From Myxococcales bacterium (GTDB taxonomy: Bacteria; Myxococcota_A; UBA9160; SMWR01): a stretch of DNA of 42,218 nt. This document shows positions 738 to 36,808 of the stretch, piece by piece. The position numbers and the translations under genes were made by a program. The stretch spans positions 1 to 42,218 of the forward strand of contig JAOTUO010000002.1 of the NCBI GenBank assembly GCA_029863845.1, written 5' to 3'. Numbering within the stretch: the stretch's first letter is position 1; every line of letters starts with the position of its first letter. The notes beneath the pieces were generated by a model. The model was not told the DNA's origin. It did no database searches and saw only the letters and a program-made list of their open reading frames with translations.

Positions 738-1190
738 ATGTCGCATCACGCATCTCCCGCCCGTCTGTCGCGCCGCAGCGTCCTCAACGTCCTGCTCAGC
801 GTGGGAGTGCTGGGTTGGCTCGCGAGCGTTCTCTATCCCGTGATCCGCTACCTCACCCCCCTGCCCCTGGTGGGGCCGGGAGGTCCCGTCCAACTGACGA
901 GGTCCGAGGTGACGAAGATCGAGCGCGACAAGTTCGCGATCGTCCCTGTGGGCCGGCGGCGGGTTCTCGTGTTGGAAGACTCCGAGGGGGAGCTTCGGGC
1001 ACTCGACGCCAAGTGCACGCACGAGGGTTGCACCGTGAAGTACATGCCTCGCGACTCACTCATCGTGTGCGCCTGCCACAACGGCCGCTTCGACCTCCAG
1101 GGCCGCGTCGTGGCGGGACCGCCGCCGAAGCCCCTGGCGACCTACGCGGTCCAGCGCGACGAGGAAGGAGTCATCAAGGTCACGGTATGA
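738..1190 (+). CDS. Rieske [2Fe-2S] iron-sulfur subunit of a cytochrome bc/b6f-type complex
   Basis: Inner ATG of ORF 51..1190, in frame. Twin-arginine motif SRRSVL followed by a TM anchor. Rieske cluster boxes CTHEGC and CACHNGRF. The stop overlaps the cytochrome b start (ATGA). Confidence 0.9.
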   Translation: MSHHASPARLSRRSVLNVLLSVGVLGWLASVLYPVIRYLTPLPLVGPGGPVQLTRSEVTKIERDKFAIVPVGRRRVLVLEDSEGELRALDAKCTHEGCTVKYMPRDSLIVCACHNGRFDLQGRVVAGPPPKPLATYAVQRDEEGVIKVTV

Positions 1191-2581: not shown

Positions 2582-4134
2582 GGAGTCGGACCGTCGTTCC
2601 GCTTCTGATCCTGGCGATCCTCGCGGTCGGCGCCGCCGATCCGCCGGAGGGAGGGTTCGCGCCCTCGGAGGCGCTGAGCGAGCTGTTTTCGACGCAAGGC
2701 GAGGACGGTGAAGCGCTGATCGGAGCCGAGGAACGCGAGTATTTCGAGGGGTTGCCCGCACAAGCGAAGGATCTCTTCAACGATGCGATCGACAACGAGC
2801 TCTTGAACGAGGCCAGCCAGCTGAGAGAGCTGCTCTCCCTCGCTCTCAGCCCGTCGAAGCTCGAGCTTCTGATGCGGGACAACTGCGTCTTGTGTCACAC
2901 GGACCCCGAGGCGCAGGATCCGGAGACCCTGTTCTGGACCGATCCGGAGGCGGTCGGGTCGCCGCCGCACCTGAATCTGAGGGAAGTCGTCCGCGACGTG
3001 CACTTTCGCCGCGGCCTCTCCTGCTCCGGATGCCACGGCGGGACCCCCACCGACGAGGACATGGCCGACGAGATCTACGATCGCTGGCCGGAAGCGCCCG
3101 AGCGGCACGCGGATCGAACCTGGATCCCCGACTTCTGCGCGCGCTGCCACTCGGACCCGGCCTTCATGCGGCGCTTCGACCCGTCGCTGGCCACGGACCA
3201 GTACGCAAAGTACCGGGAGAGCCTGCATGGAAAACTGCTCCTGGAGCAGGCGGACTCGAAGGCCGCCCAGTGTGTGAGCTGTCATGGTGTCCACGGGATC
3301 CGCGATTCGAAGAGCCCCCGTTCGCCGGTCCATCCCCGGAACGTTCCCTACACCTGTGGCGCCTGTCACGCCGACGCCGACTACATGAAGGGCTACAAGG
3401 ACGCCGCCGGGGATCCCCTGCCGACCAACCAGCTGGAGGAGTTCGAGACCAGCGTCCACGGTCGCGCCCTGCTCGAGCGCGGGGACACGGGGGCTCCCGC
3501 CTGCAACGACTGCCATGGGAACCACGCCGCGATGCCGCCCGAGATCGCCAGCATCGGGCAGGTGTGCCGCACCTGTCACTCCGGCAACGGAGAGCTCTTC
3601 GAGGGCAGCAAGCACAAGAAGGCTTTCGAGCGCAACGGCTGGCCCGAGTGCGAGAAGTGCCACGGGAACCACGCGATCGCCAGGACGGACGACTCGATGC
3701 TCAACGAGAAGTCCAATCCGCTCTGCTATGAGTGCCACCGCGAGAACGCCGAGGACAACCCGGACTGCATACGGACCGCGGAGTACTTCTATGCCTCGAT
3801 CAGCACGCTGGCGACCGAGCAGAAGTCCCTCGCCGAACAGGTGCACCAGCTCGCCGAGAAGGGACTGGACGTCGAGCCCCTGGCGGCGACCGTCGACGAC
3901 ATGGAGGACACCCTCAGACAGTCGCGATCGCTCATCCACGCGTTCGACAGGAGTGAGTTCGAGAAGATCGAGAAGCGCGGACACGAAGCGGCTCGGCAGG
4001 GCTGGGAGCAGGTCGAAGCGGCGGAGGGCGAGTACCGGTTCCGGCTCACGGGGCTGCGCGTCGCCATCGGGTTCATGATCCTGCTGTCGGTCGCGCTGTA
4101 CCTGAAGATCCGCGAGATGGAAGCGCGCACCTAG
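2413..4134 (+). CDS. membrane-anchored nine-haem c-type cytochrome
   Basis: Nine CXXCH motifs: CVLCH, CSGCH, CARCH, CVSCH, CGACH, CNDCH, CRTCH, CEKCH, CYECH. Signal-peptide-like RSRTVVPLLILAILAVGA starts near nt 2581. The C-terminal region looks like a coiled coil and ends in a TM helix (VAIGFMILLSVALYLKI). 2413 is the only in-frame ATG/GTG/TTG start, but the first ~55 codons are Arg-rich and overlap cytochrome b, so the real start is probably near 2578 (see findings). Confidence 0.85.
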   Translation: MVRLQRRGGPARRAARAGWTSLPGGGRDRRRRCCAGDGLHRRSRSDFGYARRRWTLRSRTVVPLLILAILAVGAADPPEGGFAPSEALSELFSTQGEDGEALIGAEEREYFEGLPAQAKDLFNDAIDNELLNEASQLRELLSLALSPSKLELLMRDNCVLCHTDPEAQDPETLFWTDPEAVGSPPHLNLREVVRDVHFRRGLSCSGCHGGTPTDEDMADEIYDRWPEAPERHADRTWIPDFCARCHSDPAFMRRFDPSLATDQYAKYRESLHGKLLLEQADSKAAQCVSCHGVHGIRDSKSPRSPVHPRNVPYTCGACHADADYMKGYKDAAGDPLPTNQLEEFETSVHGRALLERGDTGAPACNDCHGNHAAMPPEIASIGQVCRTCHSGNGELFEGSKHKKAFERNGWPECEKCHGNHAIARTDDSMLNEKSNPLCYECHRENAEDNPDCIRTAEYFYASISTLATEQKSLAEQVHQLAEKGLDVEPLAATVDDMEDTLRQSRSLIHAFDRSEFEKIEKRGHEAARQGWEQVEAAEGEYRFRLTGLRVAIGFMILLSVALYLKIREMEART

Positions 4135-9547: not shown

Positions 9548-12500
9548 TCAGAGCGTCACGATCTCGTCTCGGCGCAGGTACCAGAGCTCGAAGCGCGGCG
9601 TATACGCCAGCGCGAACGCCTCCCGCACGGCGCGGCGGTAGACGGCGCCCTGGCCCACGTAGGTGAGGCTGTACTCGGAGAGCGGCGTCTCGGGGGATAC
9701 GCGGTCGGTCTTGTAGTCGGCGATGACCAGCTCGTCCGATTCGGGATCGCGGTAGAGCAGGTCGATCGCACCCGAGACGTAGGCGGCGGGGCCGCCGTCC
9801 GCGTCCGGCGGCGCCAGCACCGGAAGCTCGCGGGCGACGACGCAGCCGGCGAGCGAGCGGAGCCGCGAGAAGAGACGGCCCGCGACGAGCGCGTCGAACA
9901 GCGCTCGCGCGTCTGCGACCGCCGCTGCGAGGCTCTCGGGCTCCACCAGCGCGCTCAGATCGCCCTCGAGCGCGTCGCGCCACCGCGCGAACTCGGCTTC
10001 GGGTTCGACCTCGAGGTCGAACTCCTCGAGCGCGCGGTGCAGCGCCGTACCGACGGCACGCGCGACCTCGGCGGGCGACGCCGTCGCAGCGGCTTCGCCG
10101 GCCGCGCGGTCGGCGCGCTGCTCGCGCCAGTCGCGGGAGCCGTCATCCGAGGCGGCGGCGCCGAAGCGGCGTTCGCGCTGGGCGGCGACGCGATCGCGCT
10201 CGGTCCGCAGGCGGCGCGCGTCGCGCTCGATCTCGGCGGGTCGGGGCAGCGCGGCGTCCCCGGCCTGCGCCCACGCCACCGACGGCGGCCGCTCGCGTGA
10301 GAGCGACGGGAAGACCCAACGCGCCGCGGCGGCGTCGAAGAAGTCCGCCTCACCGCGCTCGACGAGCCGTCCCAGCTCGGCGTCGAAATCCGGCGCCGGG
10401 AGCGCCCGCGCCCGCAGCAGGCCCGCGTGGGATCCCCGCCCGTCCTTCCCGGGATCCGGCCAGCGGCCGGAGAGCACCAGCCGGGACTTCGCGCGCGTCA
10501 TCGCCACGTAGAGCGTGCGCACAGTCTCGGCCTCGGCGACCCGATCGCGCGCCTGGCGCACCCGGTCGAAGCCCGGCGTCGGCGCCCCGAAGAGCGCGTA
10601 CTCCATGCGGCCGTCGACCGCCGCGGCGGGAACGCGCCCGGCCCCGGCGCCGCCCGATCCCTTGTGCAGCTGCATCACGTAGACGTGCTCGAAGTCGAGG
10701 CCCTTGGCGCCGTGAATCGTCAGGATCTGCACGGCGTCGTCCACGACCTCGCGCGGCGTGGCCTCCTCGGCCACCTCCTCGTCGCGCACGGCGCTTCGAA
10801 GTCGGCGCAGGACCGCGTGGCGGTTGGCTCCCTCGCACAGCTCCTGCGTGAGCTCGCGGAAGAAGCGCTCCAGATTGGCGGCGCGCCAGGGACCGAGGAA
10901 GCGCGCCGCCTCACTCGCCTCGAAGAGCAGCGCGGTGCGCAGCCGCTCGACGAAGACGTCAGGCGGGTCGCGGCGGGCAGAGCGGCGAAGCTCCTTCAGG
11001 GCGTCGATGGCGGCCAGCAGGTTGCTCTCCCAGCCCTCCACGCGCTCGCACCCGGGAACGTCCGACGGCAGGGAGACCGCCGCGGCGCGCACGCCGTCGG
11101 CGAGCTCCGCACACTTGTCCGGGGTGAGGTCCTCGAGATTCGTCAGGAGCGAGGGAAAGTCGCGGCGCCACAGCGGGAGCAGCGCGGCGTCCGGTACGCC
11201 GACGGCTGCCGAGCGCAGGAAGGCGAGGAGCGCCAGGTGGTCGTTGGGATCGAGCGCGCTGCGCACCAGCGCGGACGCGTCGATGATCTCGCGGCGCTGG
11301 TAGTAGCTGCGATCTCCCACCACCGCGTACGGCACACCGGCCTCGCGCAGGGCGCCGAGATAGATGTCCCACTCGCCCCGACTGCGGAAGAGGACGCCGA
11401 CGCCCTTCCACGCCACGCCATGGTCGTCGTGGAGCGCGCGGAGGTCGCGGGCCAGGGCGGTGGCCTCGATTCGCGCGGCGGCGGCCGCGGCAGTCGACGT
11501 CCGGACGCCCGCGGCGCGATCGACCGTGTCGGGCAGCCAGAACTCGACCGGGGCGAAGCGTCCGGCGGCGAAGCCGCCCGCGTCCCGGTTCTCGGGGCTC
11601 GGGACGAGCACCTGGAAGGGCGGCTGTACGCCCTCGCGCGGCACCAGGAGGGGCGCCGCGATCCGCTCGACCTCGTCGAGAACGGCCGGCACGGACCGGT
11701 AGTTGACCGACAGGCGGCGGCGAAGGCCGCCGGCCTCCTCGACGTCCCGAACGAACGCGTCGTACGCGGCGAGGTCGGCGCTGCGCCAGCCGTAGATCGA
11801 CTGCTTCGGATCGCCCACGAGGAAGAGTCCTGGACGCGACGACTCCGGGCCCTCGAGCGCGACCGCATGCACGATCTCGCACTGCCGGCGATCGGTATCC
11901 TGGAACTCGTCGACGAGCAGCTGATCGACGCGGTCCCTGACGCGCGCCGCCGCATCGGGTCGACTCGCGAGAAGGTGGGCCGTCTCAGTGAGCAGGCCCG
12001 AGAAGCTCAACACCCCGCGCGCGCGAAGCTGCGCTTCGACCGCGCCGAGCAGCGCGACCACCACCCGCCGGCCGCGGTCGAGACGCTCCAGGTCGAGGCT
12101 CGCGAGGTGCCGGATCAGCCCTGCGAGATCGGCGGCGGGCTCGGCCAGCGCCTCCGTCCGGTCGCCGAGGGCATTGCCCTCCTTCGTGCCGAACTTCCCA
12201 CGCGCCCATTCCCCGAGCCGGCCGACCTCGTTGTCCTGCCACTGCACCCCGAGCCACGCCAGGAACGCTTCGAATTCCGAGCGGGTCGAGAAGGGCTCCT
12301 GCTCCAGCCGCGTGACGGTCTGGCGGATGCGCGCGCTCGTCGCCTCCGCGACGCGGACGCCGCACGCATCCATGCAGTCCCCGGTGGCGGCCCGTACGGC
12401 TTCGAGTGACTCGCGCAGCCGATCTCGCAGGTGCTCGAGGCGATCGGGGGCAAGCGGGTCGCTCTCGAGCGCCTCGGCAGAGACCCCCTCCGAGAGAAGC

Positions 12501-13159
12501 GCGCACACCTCCGCCTCGATCGCGCGCGGACCCGCGTCCACTTCCGCCAGCGCCAGATAATCCGGATCGCCGGGGTCGTCGTACGCCGCGCGCAGTCGAG
12601 CCTCCAGCACGTCGCGCACCACCTCCGCCTGGCGCCGGCCCTCTGCGTCGATTTCGAGCCGAGGGTGCAGCTGCGCCTCGAGCGGATACAGCGAGAGGAG
12701 ACGGCGGCACCACGCGTGGATGGTGTGCACCTCGAGGTAATCGAGGGCGCTGCGCAGCGCCCGCGTGCGCTCGCGTCGCAGCGATGCCACCGGCAGGCAG
12801 TCCTCGACGACGCCGACCGGGAGCTCTCCACGCTCGACGCCGCGCAGCGCCGCGTCGACGCGCGTCGCCATCTCGGCCGCCGCCGCCTCGGTGAAGGTGA
12901 TGGCGACGACGCCCGACAGGACGCGCGCGGCCACGTGGTGATCGAGCCCCGCGGCGCCGTCTGCCCCACGCAGCGCGGCGGCCGCGCGCTCCCAGCCCTC
13001 GCCCAGGGTCCAGGCTGTGATGCGCGATACCAGGGCGGCGGTCTTGCCGGTGCCCGCACCGGCCTCGAGCATGAAGGGCCGGTCGAACACCTGCTGCGCC
13101 AGGCGGCGGGCCTCCGCGTCTTCGCGCCGCAGCTCCGCGACGCGCGCGTCTTCCGTCAC
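9548..13159 (-). CDS. addA: AddA-type UvrD-family helicase/nuclease (double-strand break repair)
   Basis: Inner GTG of ORF 9548..13450, in frame. Helicase motifs EAGAGTGKTAAL, LLVDEFQDTD, VGDPKQSIYGWRSAD and LYVAMTRAKSRLVLSG. C-terminal PD-(D/E)XK nuclease (IDLLYRD...LVIADYKTDR). The start overlaps the addB stop (GTGA). Confidence 0.88.
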   Translation of the reverse strand: MTEDARVAELRREDAEARRLAQQVFDRPFMLEAGAGTGKTAALVSRITAWTLGEGWERAAAALRGADGAAGLDHHVAARVLSGVVAITFTEAAAAEMATRVDAALRGVERGELPVGVVEDCLPVASLRRERTRALRSALDYLEVHTIHAWCRRLLSLYPLEAQLHPRLEIDAEGRRQAEVVRDVLEARLRAAYDDPGDPDYLALAEVDAGPRAIEAEVCALLSEGVSAEALESDPLAPDRLEHLRDRLRESLEAVRAATGDCMDACGVRVAEATSARIRQTVTRLEQEPFSTRSEFEAFLAWLGVQWQDNEVGRLGEWARGKFGTKEGNALGDRTEALAEPAADLAGLIRHLASLDLERLDRGRRVVVALLGAVEAQLRARGVLSFSGLLTETAHLLASRPDAAARVRDRVDQLLVDEFQDTDRRQCEIVHAVALEGPESSRPGLFLVGDPKQSIYGWRSADLAAYDAFVRDVEEAGGLRRRLSVNYRSVPAVLDEVERIAAPLLVPREGVQPPFQVLVPSPENRDAGGFAAGRFAPVEFWLPDTVDRAAGVRTSTAAAAAARIEATALARDLRALHDDHGVAWKGVGVLFRSRGEWDIYLGALREAGVPYAVVGDRSYYQRREIIDASALVRSALDPNDHLALLAFLRSAAVGVPDAALLPLWRRDFPSLLTNLEDLTPDKCAELADGVRAAAVSLPSDVPGCERVEGWESNLLAAIDALKELRRSARRDPPDVFVERLRTALLFEASEAARFLGPWRAANLERFFRELTQELCEGANRHAVLRRLRSAVRDEEVAEEATPREVVDDAVQILTIHGAKGLDFEHVYVMQLHKGSGGAGAGRVPAAAVDGRMEYALFGAPTPGFDRVRQARDRVAEAETVRTLYVAMTRAKSRLVLSGRWPDPGKDGRGSHAGLLRARALPAPDFDAELGRLVERGEADFFDAAAARWVFPSLSRERPPSVAWAQAGDAALPRPAEIERDARRLRTERDRVAAQRERRFGAAASDDGSRDWREQRADRAAGEAAATASPAEVARAVGTALHRALEEFDLEVEPEAEFARWRDALEGDLSALVEPESLAAAVADARALFDALVAGRLFSRLRSLAGCVVARELPVLAPPDADGGPAAYVSGAIDLLYRDPESDELVIADYKTDRVSPETPLSEYSLTYVGQGAVYRRAVREAFALAYTPRFELWYLRRDEIVTL

Positions 13160-16100
13160 GCCCCCTCCCCGAGCTTCCAGCCCCCGAGGAGCGCCCGCTC
13201 GGCGGGGCTGCGGTCTCGCGCGGCCGCGTCGGCGCCCGTCCAGCCCTCGAGTCGGCGCCGCGCCCCCGAGTCGCCGCGCAGGCAGGCGACCCTCACCTCG
13301 CACCACCCACAGCGATCGGGCTCCCTCCCCTTGGCGTCGGCCAGACGCGGGAAGAAGGCGCCGCGATCCCACACCTCGAGCACGCTTCGCACGGCGGACT
13401 CGAACGCCGCGGCGAATGCCTCGTCGTCGGAGCGCACTTCGAGGCTGCACGCGTGCTCCGGCGTCTCGGGGCTCAGGAACAGGTAACGCCCCCGGGCCGG
13501 TGCGCAGCGCCCGCCCGCCCGGGCGTAGGCGGTCGCCTGGAGCATCTCACCGCGGGCGACGCGCTGGCGATGGTGCTCCTCCCGAATCGAGAGCGTCTTC
13601 TGCGTGTCGGGCGGCTTTCCCGTCTTGTAGTCGGTGAGACACAACCCGCCCTCGCTGCGGTCGACGCGGTCCGCCCGAAAGCGCACCGTCCGCTCTCGCC
13701 CCTGCGCATCGCGCAACGCGACGGAGCCGGTCAGCTCGGCGCCGAGCACCGCAACCGCCGCGCTCGGCTCGGACCAGTCTCGTTCCCGTGCGATCTCGAG
13801 GCGCGCGTGAGCGCGCTTCGCCAGGATGCGCTCGAAGCCTCGCAGCGCGATCCCCTCCTCGCGCGCCACCGACTCCGCGCAGCTGCGAACCATCGCGTCG
13901 AGGGTCTCGGCGTCGGGCCAGCGCACCGGTACCGGATCGCGGCGCCATGCCGCGTCGAGATCCCCGGGCGCGTCTCCGAGCTCCTGCACCGCGATCCGCT
14001 CGAGCGCGCGGTGGACGACGCTTCCCAGGACCCGGGGCTCGACTCCGGGGAGATCCCCGAGCGAGTCGGGCGGGAGCTCGAGCCGAAGAACGCGGCTCAG
14101 GAACGTGCGCCACGGACATCCGGCCAGGTCCTCCAGGACGGTCACGTACGGAGTTTCCCCGGCCGCCGTACCCGGGGGTCCGCCCGTGTAGCCGAAATAG
14201 GGGCCCGGGTCGCGGGGCTGGCTCGAAGGGGGATCGAGCTCGGCGAGCACCGCGCAGCGCGAGCGAGCGAGGGCAAGCGGCTCCGCCCTTTCCGTGCGGG
14301 GACCCTCCGACGCCCCCTCGTCGAGGGCAATCCGCAGCACGCGTTCGAAGCGCTTGCGCGACCCGTAGAGCCCGGCCAGGATCGCGTGCTCGTGGGCGGG
14401 ACGCGGCGGGCGCGAGGCGTCCGGTCGTCCCGGCGCGCAGACCCCGTAAAGCGAGGGAATCGCATCCGGCTCGGGCACGGTCCCATCGGACTGGAGTCGC
14501 TCGACGAGCGGTGAAACGGGGTGCGGCTTGCCGTCGTCGTCGGTGATCGGACACGAGAGCGTGACCTCCGGGCTCGCCGACAGGAGCTGCGCGAACAGGT
14601 AGCGGTCCTCGTCGTGGCCCTCCGACTTGACGGGAAGGTCGGGAAGCACGGCGCGCAGGCGCCTTCGCAGCGCGTCGGACAGCAGTGGATCCTCGGCGAC
14701 CGGTCGGGGAAAGAGGCCCCGTCCGAGGCCCATCACGAACAGGTGGTCGAACGTGCGCGCGCGCGCCTCCATCACGTTCAGGACCGCGACGCCGGCGCCC
14801 TCGCCGCCGAGCGGCGTCGAGCCTGCGCCCCCCAGCACCCGGCCGAGCAGGAGGATGAAATCGTCGCGGCCCAGCTCGACGTCGCCGGGAAGCTCGGCCC
14901 GAGGCGCGAAGATCGCCGCCTCCAGCGCGCTCCGTTCGCGAGCGTCGCTCCGCCAGTTCAGGTCATCGTCGATCAAACGGCGCAGCCACTCGCGATGCGC
15001 GTCCAGTCGATCGCGTTCCGGCTGGTGAGTGAAGCGCTCGTCCAGGGACCGGGCTGCGGCGATGGCGCGCTCGAGAAGCGCGCGGTGGATTCGCCGGTGC
15101 GGGAGCCGGCCCGCCCCGGCGTCGTCCTCCCGAAGACCGCTGCGCACCGGAAGCGCGAGCGCCTCTTCGCTCTCCGGCTCGGAGATCTCCAGCGACGCCG
15201 CGTCCACCAGGCGTGCGGCGCCCCGCGCGTGGAGGGCCAGGCCGAGGTCGGCCAGCTCGACGCTCGTCGCCTCCGGCGACGAACGCCCGGGGAACACGCA
15301 CAGGTCGAGCCAGCGCTCTGCGGGCAGGCGCGGGCCCTGCGCGACGAGCTCCAGCAGGGCCGCGATCCGGCCGCCGACCTCATCGTTCGGCCCGCGCTCG
15401 CCCAATGCCGAGAAGGGGATCCCCAGCCGCCCGAAGTGCAGGCGCAGCGGCACCGCGTACGCCGCGAGGCCGCGCGCCACGACACCGATCCGCTCCGCCC
15501 GAGCCCCGGCGTCGAGCAGTGCGCGCACGCGATCCGCCACGCCACGAGCCTCCGCGTGGGGACCGGGCGCTCGCAGCACCGCGACCCGCGGGCGCTCGCC
15601 GCGCGGGGCGACGGTCTCGACGCCGCCCGCGGCGCTCTCGAGCCGCTCGCCGAAGCGTCGGGTGAACTCCGTCTCGGACGCGCCTTCGGCGGATGCGGGG
15701 TCGCGCGGGTGATCGAGGAGGACCCGGGCGCCGCCGTATCGCACCAGCGCCTCGATCCAATCGGCCTGAACCCCGGTGGCGTCGGCGAAGCCGTGTACGA
15801 AGAGCGCCCGACAGGGCAGCGCGCCCGCCGGGTCGCTTTGGAAGCGCTCGCGCGCCGCGCGGAAAAGCTGGGAGCGGTGACGGAGGCCGTGCTCCGCGAG
15901 GCTCGTCCCGACCCGCGCCGCCACGCGCACCAGCGCCCGGGCCCGCTCGGCCTCGGGGCCCACCTCGCCGGCGGCGAGGATTCCCTCGTCGAGGACCTCG
16001 GCGTGGTGGGGCTCGAAGCCGGCGTCGAGCAGGTCGGCGACGCCGGCCTCGACCGGACCGTAGCCGTCGACGAACGGCTCGAAGCCGTCGCGCAGGACCG

Positions 16101-16425
16101 GCTCGGCGCGCGCGAGCCGGCGCACCATCACCGCGAACAGCGCCGAGCCCACGGGCGCGCCCTCCCCCGTCCGCTCGGCGATCTCGAGGGCGAACGAGTA
16201 CAGGGTTCGAATCGAGATGCCCGCCACGGCACCGAACTCCGCCACGACGACGGCCGAGAGATGCTCGCGCAGGCTGCGCGACGGAACGACGATCCGCAGC
16301 GGCGCGACGAGCCGACCCGGCTCCCGGATGCCCGCTTCGAGCAACGGGCGCAGCGCGCCGAGCAGGCTGGCTTCGACGGCCCGCGGCCCCTGGCCGATCC
16401 GCAGCGGATGGGTTCCCCTCGTCAT
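13156..16425 (-). CDS. addB: AddB-type nuclease subunit with Fe-S cluster
   Basis: C-terminal RecB-like nuclease (LCLTDYKTGKP, LQATAYARA). The Cys set GCPW ... CGWCEVRVAC fits the AddB iron-staple cluster. The N-terminal helicase-like domain is degenerate. The start is set at the internal ATG (MTRGTHPL) preceded by GAGAGAGG; the ORF extends to 16488. Confidence 0.85.
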   Translation of the reverse strand: MTRGTHPLRIGQGPRAVEASLLGALRPLLEAGIREPGRLVAPLRIVVPSRSLREHLSAVVVAEFGAVAGISIRTLYSFALEIAERTGEGAPVGSALFAVMVRRLARAEPVLRDGFEPFVDGYGPVEAGVADLLDAGFEPHHAEVLDEGILAAGEVGPEAERARALVRVAARVGTSLAEHGLRHRSQLFRAARERFQSDPAGALPCRALFVHGFADATGVQADWIEALVRYGGARVLLDHPRDPASAEGASETEFTRRFGERLESAAGGVETVAPRGERPRVAVLRAPGPHAEARGVADRVRALLDAGARAERIGVVARGLAAYAVPLRLHFGRLGIPFSALGERGPNDEVGGRIAALLELVAQGPRLPAERWLDLCVFPGRSSPEATSVELADLGLALHARGAARLVDAASLEISEPESEEALALPVRSGLREDDAGAGRLPHRRIHRALLERAIAAARSLDERFTHQPERDRLDAHREWLRRLIDDDLNWRSDARERSALEAAIFAPRAELPGDVELGRDDFILLLGRVLGGAGSTPLGGEGAGVAVLNVMEARARTFDHLFVMGLGRGLFPRPVAEDPLLSDALRRRLRAVLPDLPVKSEGHDEDRYLFAQLLSASPEVTLSCPITDDDGKPHPVSPLVERLQSDGTVPEPDAIPSLYGVCAPGRPDASRPPRPAHEHAILAGLYGSRKRFERVLRIALDEGASEGPRTERAEPLALARSRCAVLAELDPPSSQPRDPGPYFGYTGGPPGTAAGETPYVTVLEDLAGCPWRTFLSRVLRLELPPDSLGDLPGVEPRVLGSVVHRALERIAVQELGDAPGDLDAAWRRDPVPVRWPDAETLDAMVRSCAESVAREEGIALRGFERILAKRAHARLEIARERDWSEPSAAVAVLGAELTGSVALRDAQGRERTVRFRADRVDRSEGGLCLTDYKTGKPPDTQKTLSIREEHHRQRVARGEMLQATAYARAGGRCAPARGRYLFLSPETPEHACSLEVRSDDEAFAAAFESAVRSVLEVWDRGAFFPRLADAKGREPDRCGWCEVRVACLRGDSGARRRLEGWTGADAAARDRSPAERALLGGWKLGEGA

Positions 16426-16562
16426 CGCCTCTCTCTGGACGTGCAGACTACCAGTAGGATGGGCGTGCGGCGTGACTGCCGCGGTCACGCTCTTCGAAAC
16501 CCGTAACTTACTGTTATTACTTGTATTTCAAGGGATCCTGCGGGACCGGGAGCAGATCGGCC

Positions 16563-29605: not shown

Positions 29606-31045
29606 ATGCCGCGACGCGTGGGACTCCTGGCCCTGGCGGCCGCAGGGCTGGCCGCGCTCTGGCTCCTCGGACGCGCCGGCCGGGCCCCGCCGCTCGCGGT
29701 GCCCCCCCAGGGCACCGTCCTCGCCGGGGTGACGCTCGTCCACCCGGGCGCGGGTCGGGAGCCCGAACGCACCCTCAGCGTCCGCGGGGGGCGGATCTAC
29801 CGGATCGAGCCCGCGGGGCCAGGCGCCGGCGGAGGCCCCTACTCCGGAGCCTTCGTCCTGCCGGGCCTGATCGACCTGCACGTGCATCACCCCCCGGCCT
29901 GGGCGCCCGGCGAGCGCGAGCTCTACGCCCTCCTGTTCCTCGCACACGGCGTGACGGCGGTCCGGGAGACCGGGAGCTTCTTCGGAGCGATCGAGCCCCA
30001 CCGGCGACGCATCGCGGCGGGCGAGGTCGCGGGCCCGCGGATCTTCTCGTGCGGCCCCTTCCTCGACGGGGATCCGCCGACGTGGCCGGGCGCTCGCATC
30101 GTCACGGATGCGGCCTCGGCCCGGAAGGCCTTGGCGGAGCTGGCCGAAGCAGGGCTCGACTGCGTCAAGGTCTACAACGGCGTCTCCGAGGCCTCGCTGG
30201 CCGCGATCCACGACGCGGCCGCCGCTCGCAACCTGCCGGTCGTCGCGCACGTGCCCCGGGGCACGGGAATCGAGCAGCTGGGCGGGGCCGAGGTCCAGCA
30301 CCTGATGGGGCTCACGCGATCCTGGCGGGAGGTTTCTCCGGAACGGATCGCCTGGTACGTCGAGACCTCGCGCCGGAACGGAGCGCTCCACACGCCCACG
30401 CTCGTCGCCTTCGCCCAGGGCGCGAAGCTGACCGACGTCGAGAGCCTCCGCGACGAGCCCGCCTCGCGGCTCGTACCCGCCCACTATCGCGAGATCCTCT
30501 GGGATCCCGCCCGCAACCCCCTCGTCCTCGAGCTCTTGCGGGCGAGCGGCGGCCCCTGGGCTCCCCGCGTCGCCACGATGCAGGCCACCGTGCGCGCGCT
30601 TCACGCCGCCGGCGTTCCGGTGCTCGCCGGCAGCGACACCGGCAATCCCTTCGTCGTTCCCGGAGCGAGCCTCCAGGCGGAGCTCGGTCATCTGGTCGAC
30701 GCGGGCCTGTCCCCCGAAGAGGCCTGGCTCGCGGCCACGCGCCAGGCCGCAGCGGCCCTGGGGCGTCCGGCCCTGGGCCGCCTCGCGCCGGGGGCGCCGG
30801 CCGACCTCCTGGTGTTCCGGGACGACCCGACGCGCGACCTGGCCGCGCTCGCGACCCTGGAGGCCGTCGTCGCCGGAGGGCGGCTCTATCCGAAGCAGGC
30901 GCTCGACGCCGCGCTGGCGCGGCAGCGCACCGACTTCGACGGCCCGGTGCGCGCGACGCTCTCGCGCTGGGGCGCGCGCCTGCTGGTGGCCGCCATGGAG
31001 CTACGGCGGGCCTGGGTCGTCGCCCGGCAGCCGGCGCGCGAGTAG
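29606..31045 (+). CDS. amidohydrolase family protein with N-terminal signal/anchor
   Basis: 479 aa. Metal-binding LIDLHVHH (HxH), later GSDTGNP and APGAPADLLVF blocks. Hydrophobic N-terminus LLALAAAGLAALWLL. Confidence 0.8.
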   Translation: MPRRVGLLALAAAGLAALWLLGRAGRAPPLAVPPQGTVLAGVTLVHPGAGREPERTLSVRGGRIYRIEPAGPGAGGGPYSGAFVLPGLIDLHVHHPPAWAPGERELYALLFLAHGVTAVRETGSFFGAIEPHRRRIAAGEVAGPRIFSCGPFLDGDPPTWPGARIVTDAASARKALAELAEAGLDCVKVYNGVSEASLAAIHDAAAARNLPVVAHVPRGTGIEQLGGAEVQHLMGLTRSWREVSPERIAWYVETSRRNGALHTPTLVAFAQGAKLTDVESLRDEPASRLVPAHYREILWDPARNPLVLELLRASGGPWAPRVATMQATVRALHAAGVPVLAGSDTGNPFVVPGASLQAELGHLVDAGLSPEEAWLAATRQAAAALGRPALGRLAPGAPADLLVFRDDPTRDLAALATLEAVVAGGRLYPKQALDAALARQRTDFDGPVRATLSRWGARLLVAAMELRRAWVVARQPARE

Positions 31046-31062
31046 CCGACCCCGAAACGAGC

Positions 31063-31090
31063 GGCGCCCCGGCCGCGAGGCCGGGGCGCC
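31063..31090. terminator. GC-rich hairpin between convergent genes (candidate bidirectional terminator)
   Basis: Perfect 12-bp stem GGCGCCCCGGCC-gcga-GGCCGGGGCGCC. Begins 18 nt after the amidohydrolase stop, and 24 nt separate it from the stop of the 950-aa gene. No U-tract. Confidence 0.5.
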
Positions 31091-31114
31091 GAGTGGTCGA
31101 TCCGATCGGACGGG

Positions 31115-33967
31115 CTAGGCGCCGGTCCGCCGCCGGCGGCGGTGCAGCCACAGGATCGGCGGCAGAACGAGGATCAGCTCGAAGCCGATGCCGCAGCCAA
31201 AGATCGGCGCCGCGGCCTCATCGGGCGTGCAGTTGAGCTTGCCGCCGGCGTCGACGACCCGCTCGAGCTCCCAGGTGCTGATCAGGGTGGGATCGTTCGA
31301 CTTGCCGTCACCCTGGGGCTTGCCGCAGTCCTCGAGACCGTTCAGGTCCGAGTCGGAGCACGACAGGTGGAACTTCGACTCGCCGAGCTTGACCATCGTG
31401 GCGGCGTCGAAGATCTCCCAGACCACGTCGTTCGGCGCGAAGGTGAGGTTCCTATGCATGACCTCGTCCCCGGGCATGACGGTGGCGGTCACCGCGTCCC
31501 CCGTGCTGCCCACGTCGCCCCGCCACTTCTTGACCTTGATGTTCCCGGTGCCCTTCCAGATCATCCCGATCCGGTCATAGGGCTTCTCGCACTCGTAGGG
31601 CCCCGGCGGCGGCAGCGTCACGCTGACCATCGCCTGGTCGTAGTCCGAATCGCACATCTCCCCCCCAGCGAGCTCGGCGTGGGCGTGGGCCGTATTGGTG
31701 AGCGTCAGAGTCTGGTCGTCTAGAGCCCCCAAATCGAGCGTCTGCGTATTGTAGAAGGTCTTCTGTTCACCGATCTCGAGGGTCTCACCGCTCACGATGT
31801 TGCCGGCCTTGTCGTCCTCGACCGCCACGGTGATCTGCGCGCCGTTCGGGTTCGAGACCTTGTACTGGTACTCGACCGCGCCGCCGAGGGAGATGATGCC
31901 GTCGCCTTCGCGTTCCATCGACAACACCGCGAAGTCCCCGAAGCGGTCGCCCAGGTTGAGCGGCTTCGAGCAGGACGTGTGGATCACCAGCGACTGCGTT
32001 TCCGGGGGTCCTTGGCCCGTCGCGTCGAACTCGATCGAAGACGGGAGCTGGCCATCCGGGTCGATGGGCGCGATGGTGACATATCCGCCGAACGACACGG
32101 GGGTGTCCACCGTCAGCTCCGTCACGTCCTTCGTGAGCGTGATGGCGACGCTGTCAGCCGTCAGGTTTTGACCCGTGCAGCTCGCGGCGCCGCCCTGCGG
32201 GTTGCTGACGTCGCAGATCGTGGAGCCGAACGCGTCCTGGAGGTAGACGAGGGTCAGCGACTTGAGCTTGCTCGTGCAGTGCGGCGTCGGCGGCGCCACC
32301 GGCACCTCGCAGGCGTCGGCGAAGGGCGACGCGGGCGGAGCCGGATCGCACTCCACCTCCAGGCCGTCCTTCGTGCTGAATCCGATCAGCGTCAGGCTTC
32401 CGAACACGTCGCCGCAGGCGAGCGGCTGCGAGCAGGAAGTGTGGATGCTGATCGACTGCTCCACGCTGTTGTCGTCGGTGATCAGCAGCTTCACGTTCGG
32501 GTGGAAGTCCTTCCGACCCGTCGCCGACAGACGGAAGGTGTCGCCCGCTGCGATGTTGGAGGCCGGCTCGACTCTGATCCGGTCCGGCTGCTTCCCGACG
32601 TAGGTGACGGCCACGGGCAAGTTCGCGTCCGAGGCATCCCCGTTGCACGAGGCGGTCCCGCCCTGCGGGTTGGCCAGCGGATCCTGGCAATCCGAGGGGT
32701 TGAAGCGGAAGACCGCCTCGGTGAGCTTGCTGTCACACGGGGTCCCCGTCGGCGCGGGCGGCGCCACGCAGCGCGTCGCCGTCTGGGGCGCCTCGGGATC
32801 GGTGCAGACCACCGTCCCGCCCAGCTCCGACTCGAACTCCACGAGCTTCAGGCTGCCGAACTGGTCGCCGCAGCGCAGCGCCCGGGAGCAGGAGACGTGG
32901 ACTTCCAGGTTCTGGGTCAAGGTGTCTGGGTCCTCGCGGGTGACGAGCAGCTTCAGCTGGTTCACGAGCGTGGGGCCGGAGATGCTCACGATCTCGAACG
33001 TGTCGCCCACGGCGAGGCCGGTGCTCGGCGTCGCCGACATCTTGTCGCCGTCCTTGCGGAAAGCGACCGACACGGTGTCGCCGGTTACCGGGTCGTCGTC
33101 CAGGATGGGGTTCGGGCCGCTGCACTTGGCCTCGCCGCCCTGCGTGTTGGTCGTATCCTCGCAGTCCCCGCCGACCACCTCGAACACAGCGCGAATGGCC
33201 TTGCCGTCGCAGATGCTTCCGTTCACGAGGGCGGGCTGCGGAACGCAGCAGGTCTTTTCGATCGCGACACTGCACGTCGGTTCATTGATCATGATCGCTG
33301 CCGCCGGGCCGCTCACGACCTTCTTCTGGATCTTGCCGCTGGTGTTGCCCGCCCCGCAGTTCGTGGCGAGATCGTTGTCGAGCTGAAGAATGGCCTTGGT
33401 CGCATTGGGCACCTGCGAGACCACGTCGACCGTCATCGTCCCATTCCAGAGATTGGTCCCGAAATGTCCCGGAAGGCTGAAGGTGCTCGTCGGAACGAAG
33501 GTCCCCGAGAAGGGGATGACGACGGGAGCGATCGGCCCGCCCGTGTCCTCGATTACGGTCAAGAAGCCAGAGAGGCTCGCCGAGGCGTTGGTCGTCGGGT
33601 CGCCGAAGGGGGGAAACTTCGTGAGGGTGACATCGCCGCTCTCGACGAGCGTCACGGTATCGATGGTGTTGGTGCCGTGGGCAAAGATCGTCGTGGTCAG
33701 GAGCGACGAGGTGGTGTCGATGCTGCCCACAGCGCAGCTCGAGATGAAGGCGGGCGGGAAAAACTGGAGCTGGAGCAGGTCGCCCTGCTGACTCTCAATC
33801 ACCGTCGGCGTTCCCCAGAGAACCGCCGGGTCCCCAGCCGTCTGGGTGGTCTCGGTCACCTGTAGGAAATCGACGCTGGTTCCCAGGAAATCGCCGTAGT
33901 TCACCTGGGCGAGGGCCGGTGCCGCAGCCGCCAGGAGCATCAGTGTCACGATTGCAGCTCTACGCAC
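31115..33967 (-). CDS. 950-aa secreted Cys-rich multi-module surface protein with GC-TM-Arg-rich C-terminal sorting-type signal
   Basis: GTG start preceded by GGAGGG. Signal peptide MRRAAIVTLMLLAAAAPALA. Residues ~21-230 are paralogous to the neighbouring PEP-CTERM protein. Three full and one degenerate ~150-aa Cys-rich modules end in HVSCS/HTSCS/HTSCS/HLSCS motifs. The C-terminus is FGCGIGFELILVLPPILWLHRRRRRTGA. Confidence 0.85.
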   Translation of the reverse strand: MRRAAIVTLMLLAAAAPALAQVNYGDFLGTSVDFLQVTETTQTAGDPAVLWGTPTVIESQQGDLLQLQFFPPAFISSCAVGSIDTTSSLLTTTIFAHGTNTIDTVTLVESGDVTLTKFPPFGDPTTNASASLSGFLTVIEDTGGPIAPVVIPFSGTFVPTSTFSLPGHFGTNLWNGTMTVDVVSQVPNATKAILQLDNDLATNCGAGNTSGKIQKKVVSGPAAAIMINEPTCSVAIEKTCCVPQPALVNGSICDGKAIRAVFEVVGGDCEDTTNTQGGEAKCSGPNPILDDDPVTGDTVSVAFRKDGDKMSATPSTGLAVGDTFEIVSISGPTLVNQLKLLVTREDPDTLTQNLEVHVSCSRALRCGDQFGSLKLVEFESELGGTVVCTDPEAPQTATRCVAPPAPTGTPCDSKLTEAVFRFNPSDCQDPLANPQGGTASCNGDASDANLPVAVTYVGKQPDRIRVEPASNIAAGDTFRLSATGRKDFHPNVKLLITDDNSVEQSISIHTSCSQPLACGDVFGSLTLIGFSTKDGLEVECDPAPPASPFADACEVPVAPPTPHCTSKLKSLTLVYLQDAFGSTICDVSNPQGGAASCTGQNLTADSVAITLTKDVTELTVDTPVSFGGYVTIAPIDPDGQLPSSIEFDATGQGPPETQSLVIHTSCSKPLNLGDRFGDFAVLSMEREGDGIISLGGAVEYQYKVSNPNGAQITVAVEDDKAGNIVSGETLEIGEQKTFYNTQTLDLGALDDQTLTLTNTAHAHAELAGGEMCDSDYDQAMVSVTLPPPGPYECEKPYDRIGMIWKGTGNIKVKKWRGDVGSTGDAVTATVMPGDEVMHRNLTFAPNDVVWEIFDAATMVKLGESKFHLSCSDSDLNGLEDCGKPQGDGKSNDPTLISTWELERVVDAGGKLNCTPDEAAAPIFGCGIGFELILVLPPILWLHRRRRRTGA

Positions 33968-34194
33968 GCGTTATGCCCTCCTGCCCCGAAACCCCTCTCG
34001 GGCGAGTATCTGGAGATGCCACTTCCTCCCCTAGAGAGGTGCCCGCGCCGGCAACAAAGTGGCAAGGATTACCGTGAAGATGAAACGAGATTCCGATCCG
34101 GGCCGGCGACCTGCCGGCGCCAATGCGCGTCCTCCGGGCGAAATCGCAATCATCTCGGGAGGTTAAGCTCGATCTGCGCCCCCAGGGCACGGGC

Positions 34195-34959
34195 CTAGCC
34201 CCGCCTGGAGCGCCTCAGCAGACCCATGACCAGCACACCGCCGCACAGCAGGGCGAGGGTCGCGGGCTCGGGGATGACGGTGATGTTGATCGGACCGCCA
34301 ACCTTCTTCTGGATCTTCGCCGTCGTCCCGGCCTCGCTGAAGGCCGTCAAGTCGTTATCGAACGACAACTGGACCTTCGTCGCGTTCGGAACCACGGAGG
34401 CGACGTCCACAAGGGTGCTGCCCGACCAGAGCGTCGTGCCGAGATCCCCAGGAAGCGCCGTGAGATTCGACGGGGTGAAGGTTCCCAGGAAACCGATGAC
34501 CGTTGGGGTGACCGGTGCACCGAGGACCTCTAGCACCGTCACGAAGCCGGCCATGCTCACGAAGGTGCCCGTCGCCGCCGTGCCGATCCCCGTGAGGACG
34601 ACATCGCCGAACTCCGTGATCAGGATTTGATCGATCGTCATGACGCTGGTGGTCGTGATCTCCGCCTGAAGCTGTGAGCCGGTCTGGTCGAAACTGCCTC
34701 CAGCCGCGATAGCGCTGAAGTTGGCCGGGAAGAAGGTCAGCGTGTTGCCGGCCACGGCCGTGGGGCCCGAGCAGAAGAGGGGCTCCGGGTCGCCGAAGCT
34801 GGACGCCTCCTGCACCTGGAGGAAGTCGACGTCGGTCCCGTTGAAGGTACCGGTGCCGCAGGTGGTGAGGGCGAGGGCCGACGGCGCGATCACGTGGACC
34901 AGACCGACGCCCAGGAGGCCCCACAGCGCGACGGCAACGAATCTTCCCATCATCTGCAT
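34195..34959 (-). CDS. PEP-CTERM sorting-domain protein, paralogous to the N-terminal domain of the 950-aa protein
   Basis: Inner ATG of ORF 34195..35247, in frame. MQMMGRF gives three candidate ATGs; 34953 has the best spacing from GAGG. Signal peptide. The C-terminus VIPEPATLALLCGGVLVMGLLRRSRRG is a textbook PEP-CTERM (PEP, TM helix, Arg cluster). Confidence 0.85.
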   Translation of the reverse strand: MQMMGRFVAVALWGLLGVGLVHVIAPSALALTTCGTGTFNGTDVDFLQVQEASSFGDPEPLFCSGPTAVAGNTLTFFPANFSAIAAGGSFDQTGSQLQAEITTTSVMTIDQILITEFGDVVLTGIGTAATGTFVSMAGFVTVLEVLGAPVTPTVIGFLGTFTPSNLTALPGDLGTTLWSGSTLVDVASVVPNATKVQLSFDNDLTAFSEAGTTAKIQKKVGGPINITVIPEPATLALLCGGVLVMGLLRRSRRG

Positions 34960-35053
34960 CCTCAGCTGGCGGTTTCTAGTCAGCACGGACACCTCTCTTC
35001 TACCAAACCTCGAGGGAGGTGAGGATCCAGACCAAGCGCCCGACCGGACGAGT

Positions 35054-35069
35054 AGCAAGATCCGTTCCA
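35054..35069 (-). promoter_or_regulatory. candidate sigma-54 (-24/-12) promoter of the PEP-CTERM gene
   Basis: The minus strand reads TGGAACGGATCTTGCT, against the consensus TGGCACG-N4-TTGCW. GG and GC are correctly spaced, with one mismatch in the -24 box. Lies about 95 nt upstream of the first ATG. Confidence 0.6.
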
Positions 35070-35142
35070 CCCGGATCGCCGCGAGCCGGATATGTAAGTA
35101 TCTGTTAATAAAACTGTTTTTACAGGGCTTTCGCCGCCGCCC

Positions 35143-35200
35143 CCGAGGGAACAAGAAAGCATTTTCCCACCGAGGGAAAAACGGAAGAAGTTTTCCTCCC
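35143..35200. promoter_or_regulatory. tandem repeat units, candidate enhancer (UAS) for a sigma-54 activator
   Basis: CCGAGGGAA occurs twice, 27 bp apart (35143 and 35170). Each unit holds an inverted repeat of GGGAA/TTCCC type (GGGAA-N12-TTCCC; GGAAAA-N10-TTTTCC). An AT-rich block at 35088-35126 lies between these units and the -24/-12 element. Confidence 0.35.
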
Positions 35201-35217
35201 GACCCCCGTGGGGTCGG
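35199..35217 (-). terminator. hairpin downstream of the ChaC-family gene
   Basis: CCGACCCC-cgt-GGGGTCGG, an 8-bp perfect stem about 85 nt after the ChaC stop. No U-tract. Confidence 0.3.
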
Positions 35218-35301
35218 CTCTCCGCCAGCCCCCGGGCAGGCCCCCAACGGCCCCGGCCCGACCGGCGGGAAGACGCGCCCCGCCTTTCTCGGGAAGCGGG
35301 A

Positions 35302-35844
35302 TCACGCGCCGCACGCTTCCGGACCGACCCGATCCGCCACCTCGAAGACGTGGGCGTCGTGGGCGCGGAGCGCCCGCAGCGCCGCGGCCAGCCGCAGCAC
35401 GTACTCGCGGTTGGAGCCGCTGGGCCCCGCCGACCGGCGCACCTGGGCCGCGATCTCGGCGAGCGGGGCGGGGCCCAGGTAGTTCGGGTTGCCCGCGCCC
35501 GCCACGTAGACGAGCGCGCGCACCGGCGCGTGGGCGGGGTCGCGAAAGCCCAGCGGGACCTCGTGCCGCTCGAAGCCGCCCCGCTCGCGGCGGTCGAGCG
35601 TCTCGAGAACGGCGTCGCGGTCGCGCGGATCGACGCGGTAGGCGACGCCCCAGCACCGGGCGCGTGGCTCGGTCACCAGCGTGACCACGCGGCCGGGCGC
35701 CTCGGGCAGCCCGCGGTGATCCGTCGAGCCCTGCCAGAAGCGGCGCGACCAGCCCTCGACGTAGCCGGGCCGGCGCTCGACGTGGGGAAACGCCGGCCTC
35801 CACACGAGCGATCCGTAGCCGAAGATCCACAGCGCTCGCGTCAA
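35302..35844 (-). CDS. chaC: ChaC-family gamma-glutamylcyclotransferase
   Basis: The C-terminal 180 codons of ORF 35302..36222 carry WIFGYGSLVWRP (the YGSL motif) and the ChaC-like GYVEGWSRRFWQGSTDHRG. The start is set at in-frame TTG 35844 and is uncertain. The upstream part of the ORF is antisense to the SDR gene. Confidence 0.7.
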   Translation of the reverse strand: MTRALWIFGYGSLVWRPAFPHVERRPGYVEGWSRRFWQGSTDHRGLPEAPGRVVTLVTEPRARCWGVAYRVDPRDRDAVLETLDRRERGGFERHEVPLGFRDPAHAPVRALVYVAGAGNPNYLGPAPLAEIAAQVRRSAGPSGSNREYVLRLAAALRALRAHDAHVFEVADRVGPEACGA

Positions 35845-35914
35845 GCGCGGAACGCCTCGCAGCGCGGGCGCGGGGCCATGCGCGAATCCTAGCCGAGACC
35901 CGACTGCTAGCCTG

Positions 35915-36808
35915 GTGGGAACGACGCACGCGGGAGATCCGATGGCCGAGTCGAGCTTCGAGGGGCGCACGTGCCTGGTCACCGGCGCCAGCTCCGGCGT
36001 CGGCGAGCAGACGGCGCTGGGTCTGGCCCGGCTCGGCGCCCGCGTCGTGATCGTGTGCCGCAGCCGCGAGCGGGGCGAGCGCTCACGCGCGGCGATCGTG
36101 CGGGCGAGCGGCAACCCGGCCGTGGAGCTCCTGCTCGCGGACCTGTCCTCCCAGGCGGCGATCCGCCAGCTCGCAAAGGAGATCCTGGCCGGCGTTCCCG
36201 CCATCCACGTGCTGGTGAACAACGCGGCGGTCGTGAACCTGCGGCGCGCGACGACGATCGACGGACTCGAGGCGACCTTCGCCGTGAACCACCTGGCCTA
36301 CTTCCTGCTGACGAACCTGCTGCGCGAGCGCATCGTCGCCAGCGCGCCGGCGCGGATCGTGAACGTGGCCTCCGACGGGCACAAGTTCGGCCGCCTCGAC
36401 TTCGACGACCTGCAGCTCGAGCGCCGCTACGGCTGGTGGCGCGCCTACACGGCCTCGAAGCTCGCGAACGTGCTCTTCACCGTCGAGCTGGCGCGGCGGC
36501 TCGACGGCAGCCGCGTCACCGCCAACTGCCTGCATCCGGGCGCGGTGGCTTCGCGGCTGGGCCACAACAACGGCCGCTTCGCGAAGGTCGCGACAGCGCT
36601 CCTCAAGCCCTTCTTCCTGTCTTCCGCCCAGGGCGCTGAGACGTCGATCTGGGCGGCGTCCTCCCCCGAGGTGGAAGGCCTGAGTGGCCGCTACTTCGAA
36701 AAACGCAAGGAAGGGCCCACGTCCGCCGCCGCCCGCGACGAGACGACGGCGAAACGCCTGTGGCAAGAAAGTTGCCGCCTCACCGGCCTCGCCGACGACT
36801 CCCTCTAG
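35915..36808 (+). CDS. short-chain dehydrogenase/reductase (retinol-dehydrogenase-like)
   Basis: TGASSGVG cofactor motif, NNAAV, and catalytic YTASKLAN (YxxxK). GTG at 35915 or ATG at 35942 as start. Confidence 0.85.
   Translation: MGTTHAGDPMAESSFEGRTCLVTGASSGVGEQTALGLARLGARVVIVCRSRERGERSRAAIVRASGNPAVELLLADLSSQAAIRQLAKEILAGVPAIHVLVNNAAVVNLRRATTIDGLEATFAVNHLAYFLLTNLLRERIVASAPARIVNVASDGHKFGRLDFDDLQLERRYGWWRAYTASKLANVLFTVELARRLDGSRVTANCLHPGAVASRLGHNNGRFAKVATALLKPFFLSSAQGAETSIWAASSPEVEGLSGRYFEKRKEGPTSAAARDETTAKRLWQESCRLTGLADDSL

Follow-up and report, generated by a model that had tools for sequence, protein, structure and literature searches.

A family of choice-of-anchor domains on adjacent paralogues, with a PEP-CTERM signal on one protein and a new class of Cys-type C-terminal signal on the other

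C-terminal sorting signals determine which bacterial proteins are displayed at the surface, and just a handful of classes have been catalogued. Why, then, should two neighbouring genes carry the same N-terminal domain on two different C-terminal anchors? The question is raised by a 42,218-nucleotide stretch of DNA from a Myxococcales bacterium (contig JAOTUO010000002.1, positions 1 to 42,218; the whole stretch is hereafter called the window), where the open reading frame (ORF) list contains a short gene encoding 254 aa (34195..34959) and, downstream of it, a long gene encoding 950 aa (31115..33967), both on the minus strand and separated by a spacer of 227 nt (33968..34194). The database gene call for the short paralogue (P0001) is a 100% match, with a start 27 nt further upstream that gives 263 aa. 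A preliminary description had singled out the span 33278-34959, which comprises the short gene, the spacer and the 230 N-terminal codons of the long gene. Our analysis identifies a PEP-CTERM protein family whose shared domain behaves as a choice-of-anchor domain, together with a further, Cys-type class of C-terminal signal, and neither is present in current libraries. Taken as a whole, the locus is in our view probably best explained by old tandem paralogues, kept as a conserved two-gene module, from which two C-terminal sorting pathways would bring the same Sec-exported beta-sandwich domain of ~205 aa to the cell envelope.

The N-terminal domains of the two proteins are homologous. In a BLASTP comparison, residues 37-232 of the short protein align with residues 25-230 of the long one with 94/207 identical positions (45%), 12 gap positions and an E-value of 4e-38 (single comparison). 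The identity had been put at "a third or more" by eye, which was an underestimate, and all of the shared blocks noted at that stage (VDFLQV, GDP, TID, GDV.LT, GF.TV.E, GTF.P, LPG..GT.LW.G, VDV.S.VPNATK, DNDL and KIQKK) fall within the alignment. The domain is ~205 aa long in both proteins; it occupies aa ~31-228 of the short protein (34276..34869, minus strand), as delimited by BLASTP, the AlphaFold2 model and the family profile, and aa 21-228 of the long one (33284..33907, minus strand; HMM envelope 18-227), where it carries the cysteines C78 and C204. Each copy is preceded by a Sec signal peptide that is predicted from inspection alone, covering aa 1-30 of the short protein (34870..34959, minus strand; a basic n-region, a hydrophobic core and an A-x-A site, with ...PSALA before and LTT after the cut) and aa 1-20 of the long one (33908..33967, minus strand; ...APALA before and QVN after).

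The short protein runs from this domain straight into VIPEP-ATLALLCGGVLVMGLL-RRSRRG, so that the motif, the membrane helix and the basic cluster of a PEP-CTERM sorting signal stand at its extreme C-terminus (34198..34275, minus strand). It scores 22.4 bits against TIGR02595 (cutoff 16), with 27.5 bits for the tail alone, and 21.0 bits against PF07589 (cutoff 20.7); as both curated cutoffs are exceeded, its description as a PEP-CTERM protein holds. In these respects it resembles the targets of known PEP-CTERM/exosortase systems, as does the shared-domain family in general, about 85-90% of which terminates in PEP-CTERM. It differs from them in that no exosortase or exopolysaccharide (EPS) locus was seen within the window and that the shared domain matches no named PEP-CTERM family above cutoff.

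In the long protein, the homology ends at I-N-E-P-T-C (aa 227-232; 33272..33289, minus strand), within ...IMINEPTCSV... at aa 225-234, and the chain continues, just as had been described, for 720 more residues to a different tripartite signal, FGCGIGFELILVLPPILWLHRRRRRTGA. The intervening part begins with three Cys-rich DUF7467 repeats at about aa 232-388, 400-540 and 553-685 (31913..33274, minus strand), for which PF24269 gives 191.3 bits in 3 stretches (gathering cutoff 27, E 8.9e-57) and self-BLAST marks aa 256-378, 414-530 and 587-682 as repeated. Further C-terminal modules follow at aa ~686-915 (31223..31912, minus strand); these have no family assignment and are kept in orthologues, as judged by segment BLAST against tail-bearing proteins from other loci. 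Our literature search found no paper that mentions DUF7467 or describes the terminal Cys tail.

This tail, delimited by motif recurrence and profile search, covers aa 921-950 (31118..31207, minus strand) and reads PIFG-C925-GIGFEL-ILVLPPILWL-HRRRRR-TGA, with Cys925 placed 26 residues from the C-terminus. Its general form is C-G-[ILF]-G-[FP]-E-L, then L-P-[PG]-L-x-W-L, then RRR; in a seed of 16 tail sequences the positions C, G, G, E, W, L, R and R are invariant, the Cys is present also in the hits listed, and the residue before it is usually small (VPA-C, PPA-C, FG-C). A degenerate DNA pattern gave 14 matches in 13 stretches of species-representative genomes, and 13 of the 14 are in-frame tails that end unrelated proteins, among them N-domain proteins, an alpha/beta hydrolase-like family (GxSxG-type motif), FG-GAP-like repeat proteins and other large or Cys-rich-repeat proteins. 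The labels of the metagenome-assembled genomes (MAGs) holding these loci include Deltaproteobacteria, Myxococcota, Gemmatimonadota/Gemmatimonadales and Spirochaetales. In metagenomes of the Joint Genome Institute (JGI) a degenerate pattern found at least 120 stretches, from 101 loci of which 108 tail-bearing ORFs were recovered, and a profile search with the 16 tails reached 305 protein clusters at E<=10, the best 120 of the 305 all having E<=3e-10. In nearly all of these best 120 the Cys lies 21-32 residues from the end, and the motif is CGIGFEL in 78, CGLGFEL in 23 and CGFGPEL in 6 of them.

A scan of NCBIfam at E<=10 with seven isolated tails (that of the window and six homologous ones) gave no match to TIGR03901 or to any other model; likewise, the whole long protein has no NCBIfam match at E<=1 and the Cys tail matches no Pfam model. 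The Cys tail thus behaves as a dedicated sorting signal would, with the tripartite, Cys-containing plan, and by its sequence it forms a separate class, one that is new in being absent from current family libraries. The class is plentiful in metagenomes from sediment and soil, and because no current annotation model detects it, hundreds of surface proteins are now labelled "hypothetical" with no sorting signal recognised.

Some variation around the tail was also seen. Most of the tail-bearing fragments (P0154-P0270; P0122 at aa ~235-340; L007) share a module of ~100 aa with two conserved Cys directly before the tail; it is attached to differing passenger domains, has no Pfam match and possibly belongs to a longer sorting or stalk unit. 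The long orthologue at L139 (10923-13685) has a further tail variant, CGLGAELVLLLPGFLALAYYRRRR, from which the conserved Trp is missing. A protein of 597 aa (L001, 15456-17255) that has faint Pfam hits of the NHL/TrAA12 type and is located ~4 kb from the Cys-tail protein P0122 terminates in another tail again (...GVPLMGPWALGCLAALLCASAARVGRRIPR), which from the look of its sequence alone is loosely like the IPTL/VPxxxP type.

The arrangement of the two genes had been taken for a change of anchor caught inside one locus, but the short-then-long pair turns out to be an old conserved module. Every long orthologue for which upstream DNA is available is directly preceded by a short PEP-CTERM paralogue on the same strand, and the pair recurs with order and strand kept in at least 12 loci besides the window (L002, L003, L004, L006, L038, L057, L066, L087, L093, L113, L139 and L140). 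Since it recurs so often, we regard it as a maintained arrangement and not as a transition in progress. A fresh rearrangement, by which the short gene was recently truncated from the long one or the long gene recently made by fusion, would account for the adjacency of the genes and for a homology that ends exactly at the PEP position. However, no more than 45% of positions are identical between the two copies, each copy has closer relatives elsewhere than its neighbour, and in the further loci divergence among the short partners amounts to 0.5-1.3 substitutions per site, more than among the long ones. The data already contradict a recent event of this kind, which we consider extremely unlikely.

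Other alternatives concern the nature of the tail, which had been assigned to MYXO-CTERM. That assignment is unsupported, because the tail contains a Glu, a Pro-Pro and a single Cys and has no TIGR03901 match. In the description given by Haft, the MYXO-CTERM helix is without charged or proline residues and GCGC is frequent; the long protein does have an invariant Cys in a signature motif near its C-terminus, but its segment GIGF-E-LILVL-PP-ILWL contains a Glu, two Pro and one Cys alone. Cys-type signals as a group, for which a processing model covering MYXO-CTERM and its sister signals has been published (10.1101/2023.06.07.544157, PMC11980579), share with the tail an invariant Cys in a signature motif, one helix, an Arg cluster and the occurrence on many unrelated secreted proteins; individual features also recur, such as the Pro within the helix of Synerg-CTERM and the Gly immediately after the Cys of CGP-CTERM. 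In contrast to the known members, the tail has a motif of its own (C-G-x-G-[FP]-E-L...L-P-[PG]-L-x-W-L) that no existing model matches and an acidic residue at the helix start, and no CPBP protease was found nearby. One could still suppose that the tail is a lineage-specific MYXO-CTERM, cut by an ordinary myxosortase of the MrtX, MrtC or MrtP type, so that the locus would merely pair two known anchors. The tripartite plan is the same (invariant Cys followed by Gly, hydrophobic helix, Arg cluster), a number of the source MAGs bear the label Myxococcota or Deltaproteobacteria, and MYXO-CTERM is, according to Haft, divergent enough to require lineage-specific models. Yet none of the seven isolated tails matched TIGR03901 even at E<=10, the Glu and the one or two Pro of the membrane segment, like the lack of a second Cys, are contrary to the published description, the tail is far more uniform than MYXO-CTERM (CGIGFEL in 78 of the best 120 of 305 clusters), and it is found also in MAGs labelled Gemmatimonadota/Gemmatimonadales and Spirochaetales, so that we hold this explanation to be unlikely. 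A further alternative sees in the tail no more than a conserved membrane helix at the C-terminus, which keeps the protein in the inner membrane and undergoes neither cleavage nor lipidation. A helix with Arg residues suffices for membrane anchoring, and a nearby processing enzyme was not found, ORF clustering of 137 tail loci having given no CPBP or rhomboid candidate by motif. A plain anchor, though, would not call for conserved P and W within the helix or, on its outer side, for an invariant C-G-x-G-x-E-L, all kept across unrelated passengers, and the tail always stands at the very C-terminal end of proteins that have a signal peptide, as known sorting signals do; a plain helix is thus quite improbable, and a sorting signal of a separate class is the interpretation that we retain.

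What is the domain that is presented in these two ways? Neither Pfam nor NCBIfam contains a model for it, in keeping with the suspicion that it was uncharacterised, and the sole family hits on the proteins and tails were PEP-CTERM, IPTL-CTERM and DUF7467. A profile built from 60 sequences matched 2001, 1394 and 473 representative clusters at E<=1e-3, E<=1e-10 and E<=1e-30, respectively, among 1.84 billion representatives; as the profile includes PEP-CTERM columns, only matches below about 1e-10 are safely domain-derived. A large unnamed beta-sandwich family of more than 1,000 representative clusters, absent from current libraries, is thereby defined. For the short copy, AlphaFold2 predicts an all-beta sandwich of 15 strands (pLDDT 94, pTM 0.89), and from this model and the structure comparison given below we read no more than a beta-sandwich of the binding type that lacks an enzymatic signature.

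The anchors were surveyed in 294 full-length copies of the domain. PEP-CTERM was present in 250 by a strict pattern, and about 10 further copies have PEP-like variants recognised by eye (IPAP, IPVP and similar). The Cys tail ends 14 copies, IPTL-CTERM a single one (P0127; TIGR04174, 36.3 bits, cutoff 20.5), and 5 copies are anchorless, stopping at or near the PEP position (...GEPDV, ...AEPVK); the rest comprise longer forms, either carrying other extensions or truncated at contig ends, and a few copies whose C-terminus is degenerate. The idea of a choice-of-anchor situation is thus borne out by the homologues, which carry PEP-CTERM, the Cys tail, IPTL-CTERM or no anchor. Like the "choice-of-anchor" domains of NCBIfam, this is one homology domain with alternative C-terminal signals; unlike them, neither copy matches any such model, and the alternatives here are neighbouring genes, conserved as tandem paralogues. 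IPTL-CTERM (TIGR04174, PF18203) is not present in the window, its carrier P0127 belonging to the same derived subclade as the long form.

This subclade is marked by a cysteine. Of 281 sequences, exactly 24 have a Cys in the alignment column of C204. None of these is a PEP-CTERM protein, and the group of 24 contains all 14 Cys-tail forms, the IPTL form and 4 of the 5 anchorless forms; a Cys equivalent to C78 is likewise conserved in relatives, inside an insertion (by eye). In a neighbour-joining tree of the 281 domains, the 24 C204-type sequences are grouped with 3 PEP-CTERM sequences at 80/100 bootstrap. With midpoint rooting the 24+3 group lies eight nodes deep, its sister lineages have PEP-type tails almost throughout, and the mean distance is 0.57 inside the clade vs 1.04 among the rest. 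Two scenarios had been offered for the origin of the long form, and the tree fits the one in which a PEP-CTERM ancestor had its anchor replaced or extended, not truncation of a long form. That PEP-CTERM is the ancestral state and that the long form sits in a derived subclade with a replaced anchor is suggested by these sequence comparisons with moderate confidence, the tree method being simple.

The idea that a relic of the PEP motif marks the junction could not be upheld. In register from the conserved IQKK, PEP forms read VVSGPAVVITV-I-P-E-P-G, 17 other DUF7467-type long forms read VVSGPAVAILV-N-P-x-x-C (generally [VI]-N-P-x-x-C), and the window reads VVSGPAAAIMI-N-E-P-T-C. The lone Pro conserved across the clade aligns with the first Pro of PEP, whereas the E-P of INEP stands one position off and occurs in the window alone, the 17 other long forms being without it; on this alignment INEP cannot be read as a retained PEP motif. 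The anchorless relatives, with their ends at ...GEPDV or ...VGPAP, make better candidates for a relic.

Anchorless copies of this kind were also seen in two loci (L141, 384-2889; L142, 4264-6724) with three tandem paralogues of the shared domain, joined by overlapping stop and start codons. The first paralogue has 246 aa and stops at ...VGPAP, the second has 230-232 aa and stops at ...VGPAP or ...GEPDV, both being anchorless, and the third, of 359 aa, has an IPTL-CTERM end. An apparent juxtaposition of a PEP-CTERM protein (P0052) and the IPTL-CTERM protein P0127 on one contig proved to be wrong, as P0127 lies on a contig with three paralogues, the first two of them anchorless. Two further loci depart from the simple pair. 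In L138 (10001-11557, on a 5.8-Mb contig) the short PEP-CTERM gene is intact while the long gene is reduced to two short fragments of C-terminal modules, so that the module has apparently decayed in this genome. L002, a 16.8-kb contig from ENA, contains about four copies of a 4.2-kb unit of short and long gene, some with frameshifts, and this repeat is probably an artefact of long-read assembly and not a real tandem array.

If the Cys of the tail is modified, which enzyme might do it? All long orthologues with a CGFGPEL tail and readable downstream DNA have a divergent gene of the Lgt family within a few bases downstream (L003, 12397-13236; L004; L006, 5302-6243; L008, 2385-3149; L009, 4946-5845 on the minus strand; L038, 3222-4070; L039, 777-1661; L057, 9357-10262; L066; L087, 5565-6440; L094, 3135-4082; L113, 4067-4909), and a PAP2-like gene on the opposite strand nearly always comes after it. 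As the outer flanks of the CGFGPEL loci share no genes, the cassette itself is the conserved unit. Among the 137 tail loci, once antisense shadow ORFs are set aside, the recurrent neighbours of tail genes are these Lgt-like and PAP2-like genes (beside the long gene only), short-chain dehydrogenases/reductases (SDRs) and tyrosine recombinases. The Lgt-like proteins score 69.0 and 60.2 bits against TIGR00544, below its equivalog cutoff of 118.9, and align with E. coli Lgt (5azb) at E 1.1e-11; the GRLG arginine is kept, while the signature is otherwise altered (GRLGNFINGELWG to GRLGCALQHDHVG, HGG to FGG). By tblastn such a gene is absent from the window (tail CGIGFEL), and none adjoins the long orthologues with other tails at L065 (CGLGFEL) and L139/L140 (CGLGAEL) or the unrelated tail-bearing genes. 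The tail appears to drift lineage by lineage, as would be expected if it co-evolves with its enzyme.

Comparison with the Lgt/lipobox pathway gives a mixed picture. In both, a Cys lies on the outer side of a helix in the inner membrane; further points of likeness are the small residue that usually precedes it and the divergent Lgt homologue adjoining the long gene in CGFGPEL loci. The topology, by contrast, is inverted, the Cys standing before a C-terminal helix, and the Lgt-like protein falls well short of the family cutoff and has no counterpart in the window. In the myxosortase literature (10.1101/2023.06.07.544157, PMC11980579) an "Lgt-like acyl-transferase" that acts on the Cys of these signals is predicted and has yet to be found, which makes the CGFGPEL cassette a testable candidate and offers a possible answer to the question of who lipidates the Cys of MYXO-CTERM-like signals. 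From its synteny within one orthologue group we regard the Lgt-like gene as a candidate lipid transferase for the C-terminal Cys. The farther-reaching proposal, that the C-G-x-G-x-E-L tail defines a new sorting system with the Lgt-like gene, together with its PAP2-like neighbour, as the dedicated Cys transferase, is doubtful, and we put it forward as speculation. If true, this would be the first identification of the predicted acyl-transferase, and the short paralogue, the long paralogue and the Lgt-like and PAP2-like genes would make up a self-contained unit of targets and enzyme.

How might the conserved pair of anchors work? We propose that both products are exported by Sec. The short protein would place the domain directly on a PEP-CTERM signal, presumably processed by an exosortase encoded elsewhere, whereas the long protein would carry it at the tip of a stalk of ~700 aa (the three DUF7467 repeats and the further modules), and would be anchored in the inner membrane by its C-terminal helix, the Cys lying at the outer face. 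By analogy with the model for MYXO-CTERM and its sister signals, the Cys would then be modified and the helix cut off. The same domain, which may bind a ligand, would thus be placed at two depths or in two compartments of the envelope, possibly at the surface, and the keeping of tandem paralogues on different anchors suggests that the cell requires one and the same binding module at two sites of its envelope.

Several points weigh against this proposal. No recognisable sorting enzyme (exosortase, CPBP protease, rhomboid or Lgt-like) is encoded in the 42-kb window, which seems to span the entire contig, and a crude motif scan of the 137 loci found no protease gene recurring beside tail-bearing genes. 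Cleavage and lipidation of the Cys tail would follow from the MYXO-CTERM model by analogy. A binding role of the domain receives little help from Foldseek, which found in PDB only weak neighbours of jelly-roll, concanavalin A (ConA)-lectin and carbohydrate-binding module (CBM) type; the best, Bd1399 (E 1.7e-5, TM 0.31-0.38), gives no functional lead because it is itself a secreted beta-sandwich of unknown function. The tree used for the order of events is a neighbour-joining one of 195 columns with a midpoint root, in which the 24-sequence clade by itself has a bootstrap value of 26/100.

The locus itself is sound. Logan contigs from three independent sediment-metagenome runs cover the region without indels; a single contig from one of them (run X1) spans 32932-35300, that is, the N-terminal third of the long gene, the spacer and the entire short gene, and contigs from runs X1 and X2 link the C-terminal domain of the long protein, its tail and the downstream DNA. 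As the contigs bridge both, the junction and the tail are not assembly artefacts. At 31020-31268 the tail-covering X1 and X2 contigs also extend into unrelated sequence on both sides; because the contigs diverge around the tail DNA, near-identical tail-coding DNA seems to be present in other genes of the same sediment communities. No RNA evidence was found for the locus, the runs that hold it being DNA runs of sediment metagenomes only. A scan of the 227-nt spacer for promoter and terminator consensus sequences revealed no terminator-like hairpin and nothing else between the two genes, which may therefore be co-transcribed. Overlapping terminator-like hairpins with T-runs are found 5' of the short gene, at 35160-35201 on the minus strand, right after a ChaC-like gene (35302-36222).

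Two other parts of the window contain recognisable genes. At 1-4134 there are an ORF of the Rieske iron-sulfur type (CTHEGC...CHNGRF), a cytochrome b-like protein (by eye) and a multihaem cytochrome c (Cytochrome_C7, with paired CXXCH motifs), a cluster that may represent a respiratory complex. The adjacent large genes at 9548-16527 encode a UvrD-type helicase with a PD-(D/E)XK nuclease domain and a PD-(D/E)XK protein, and look like a helicase-nuclease pair of the AddAB type.

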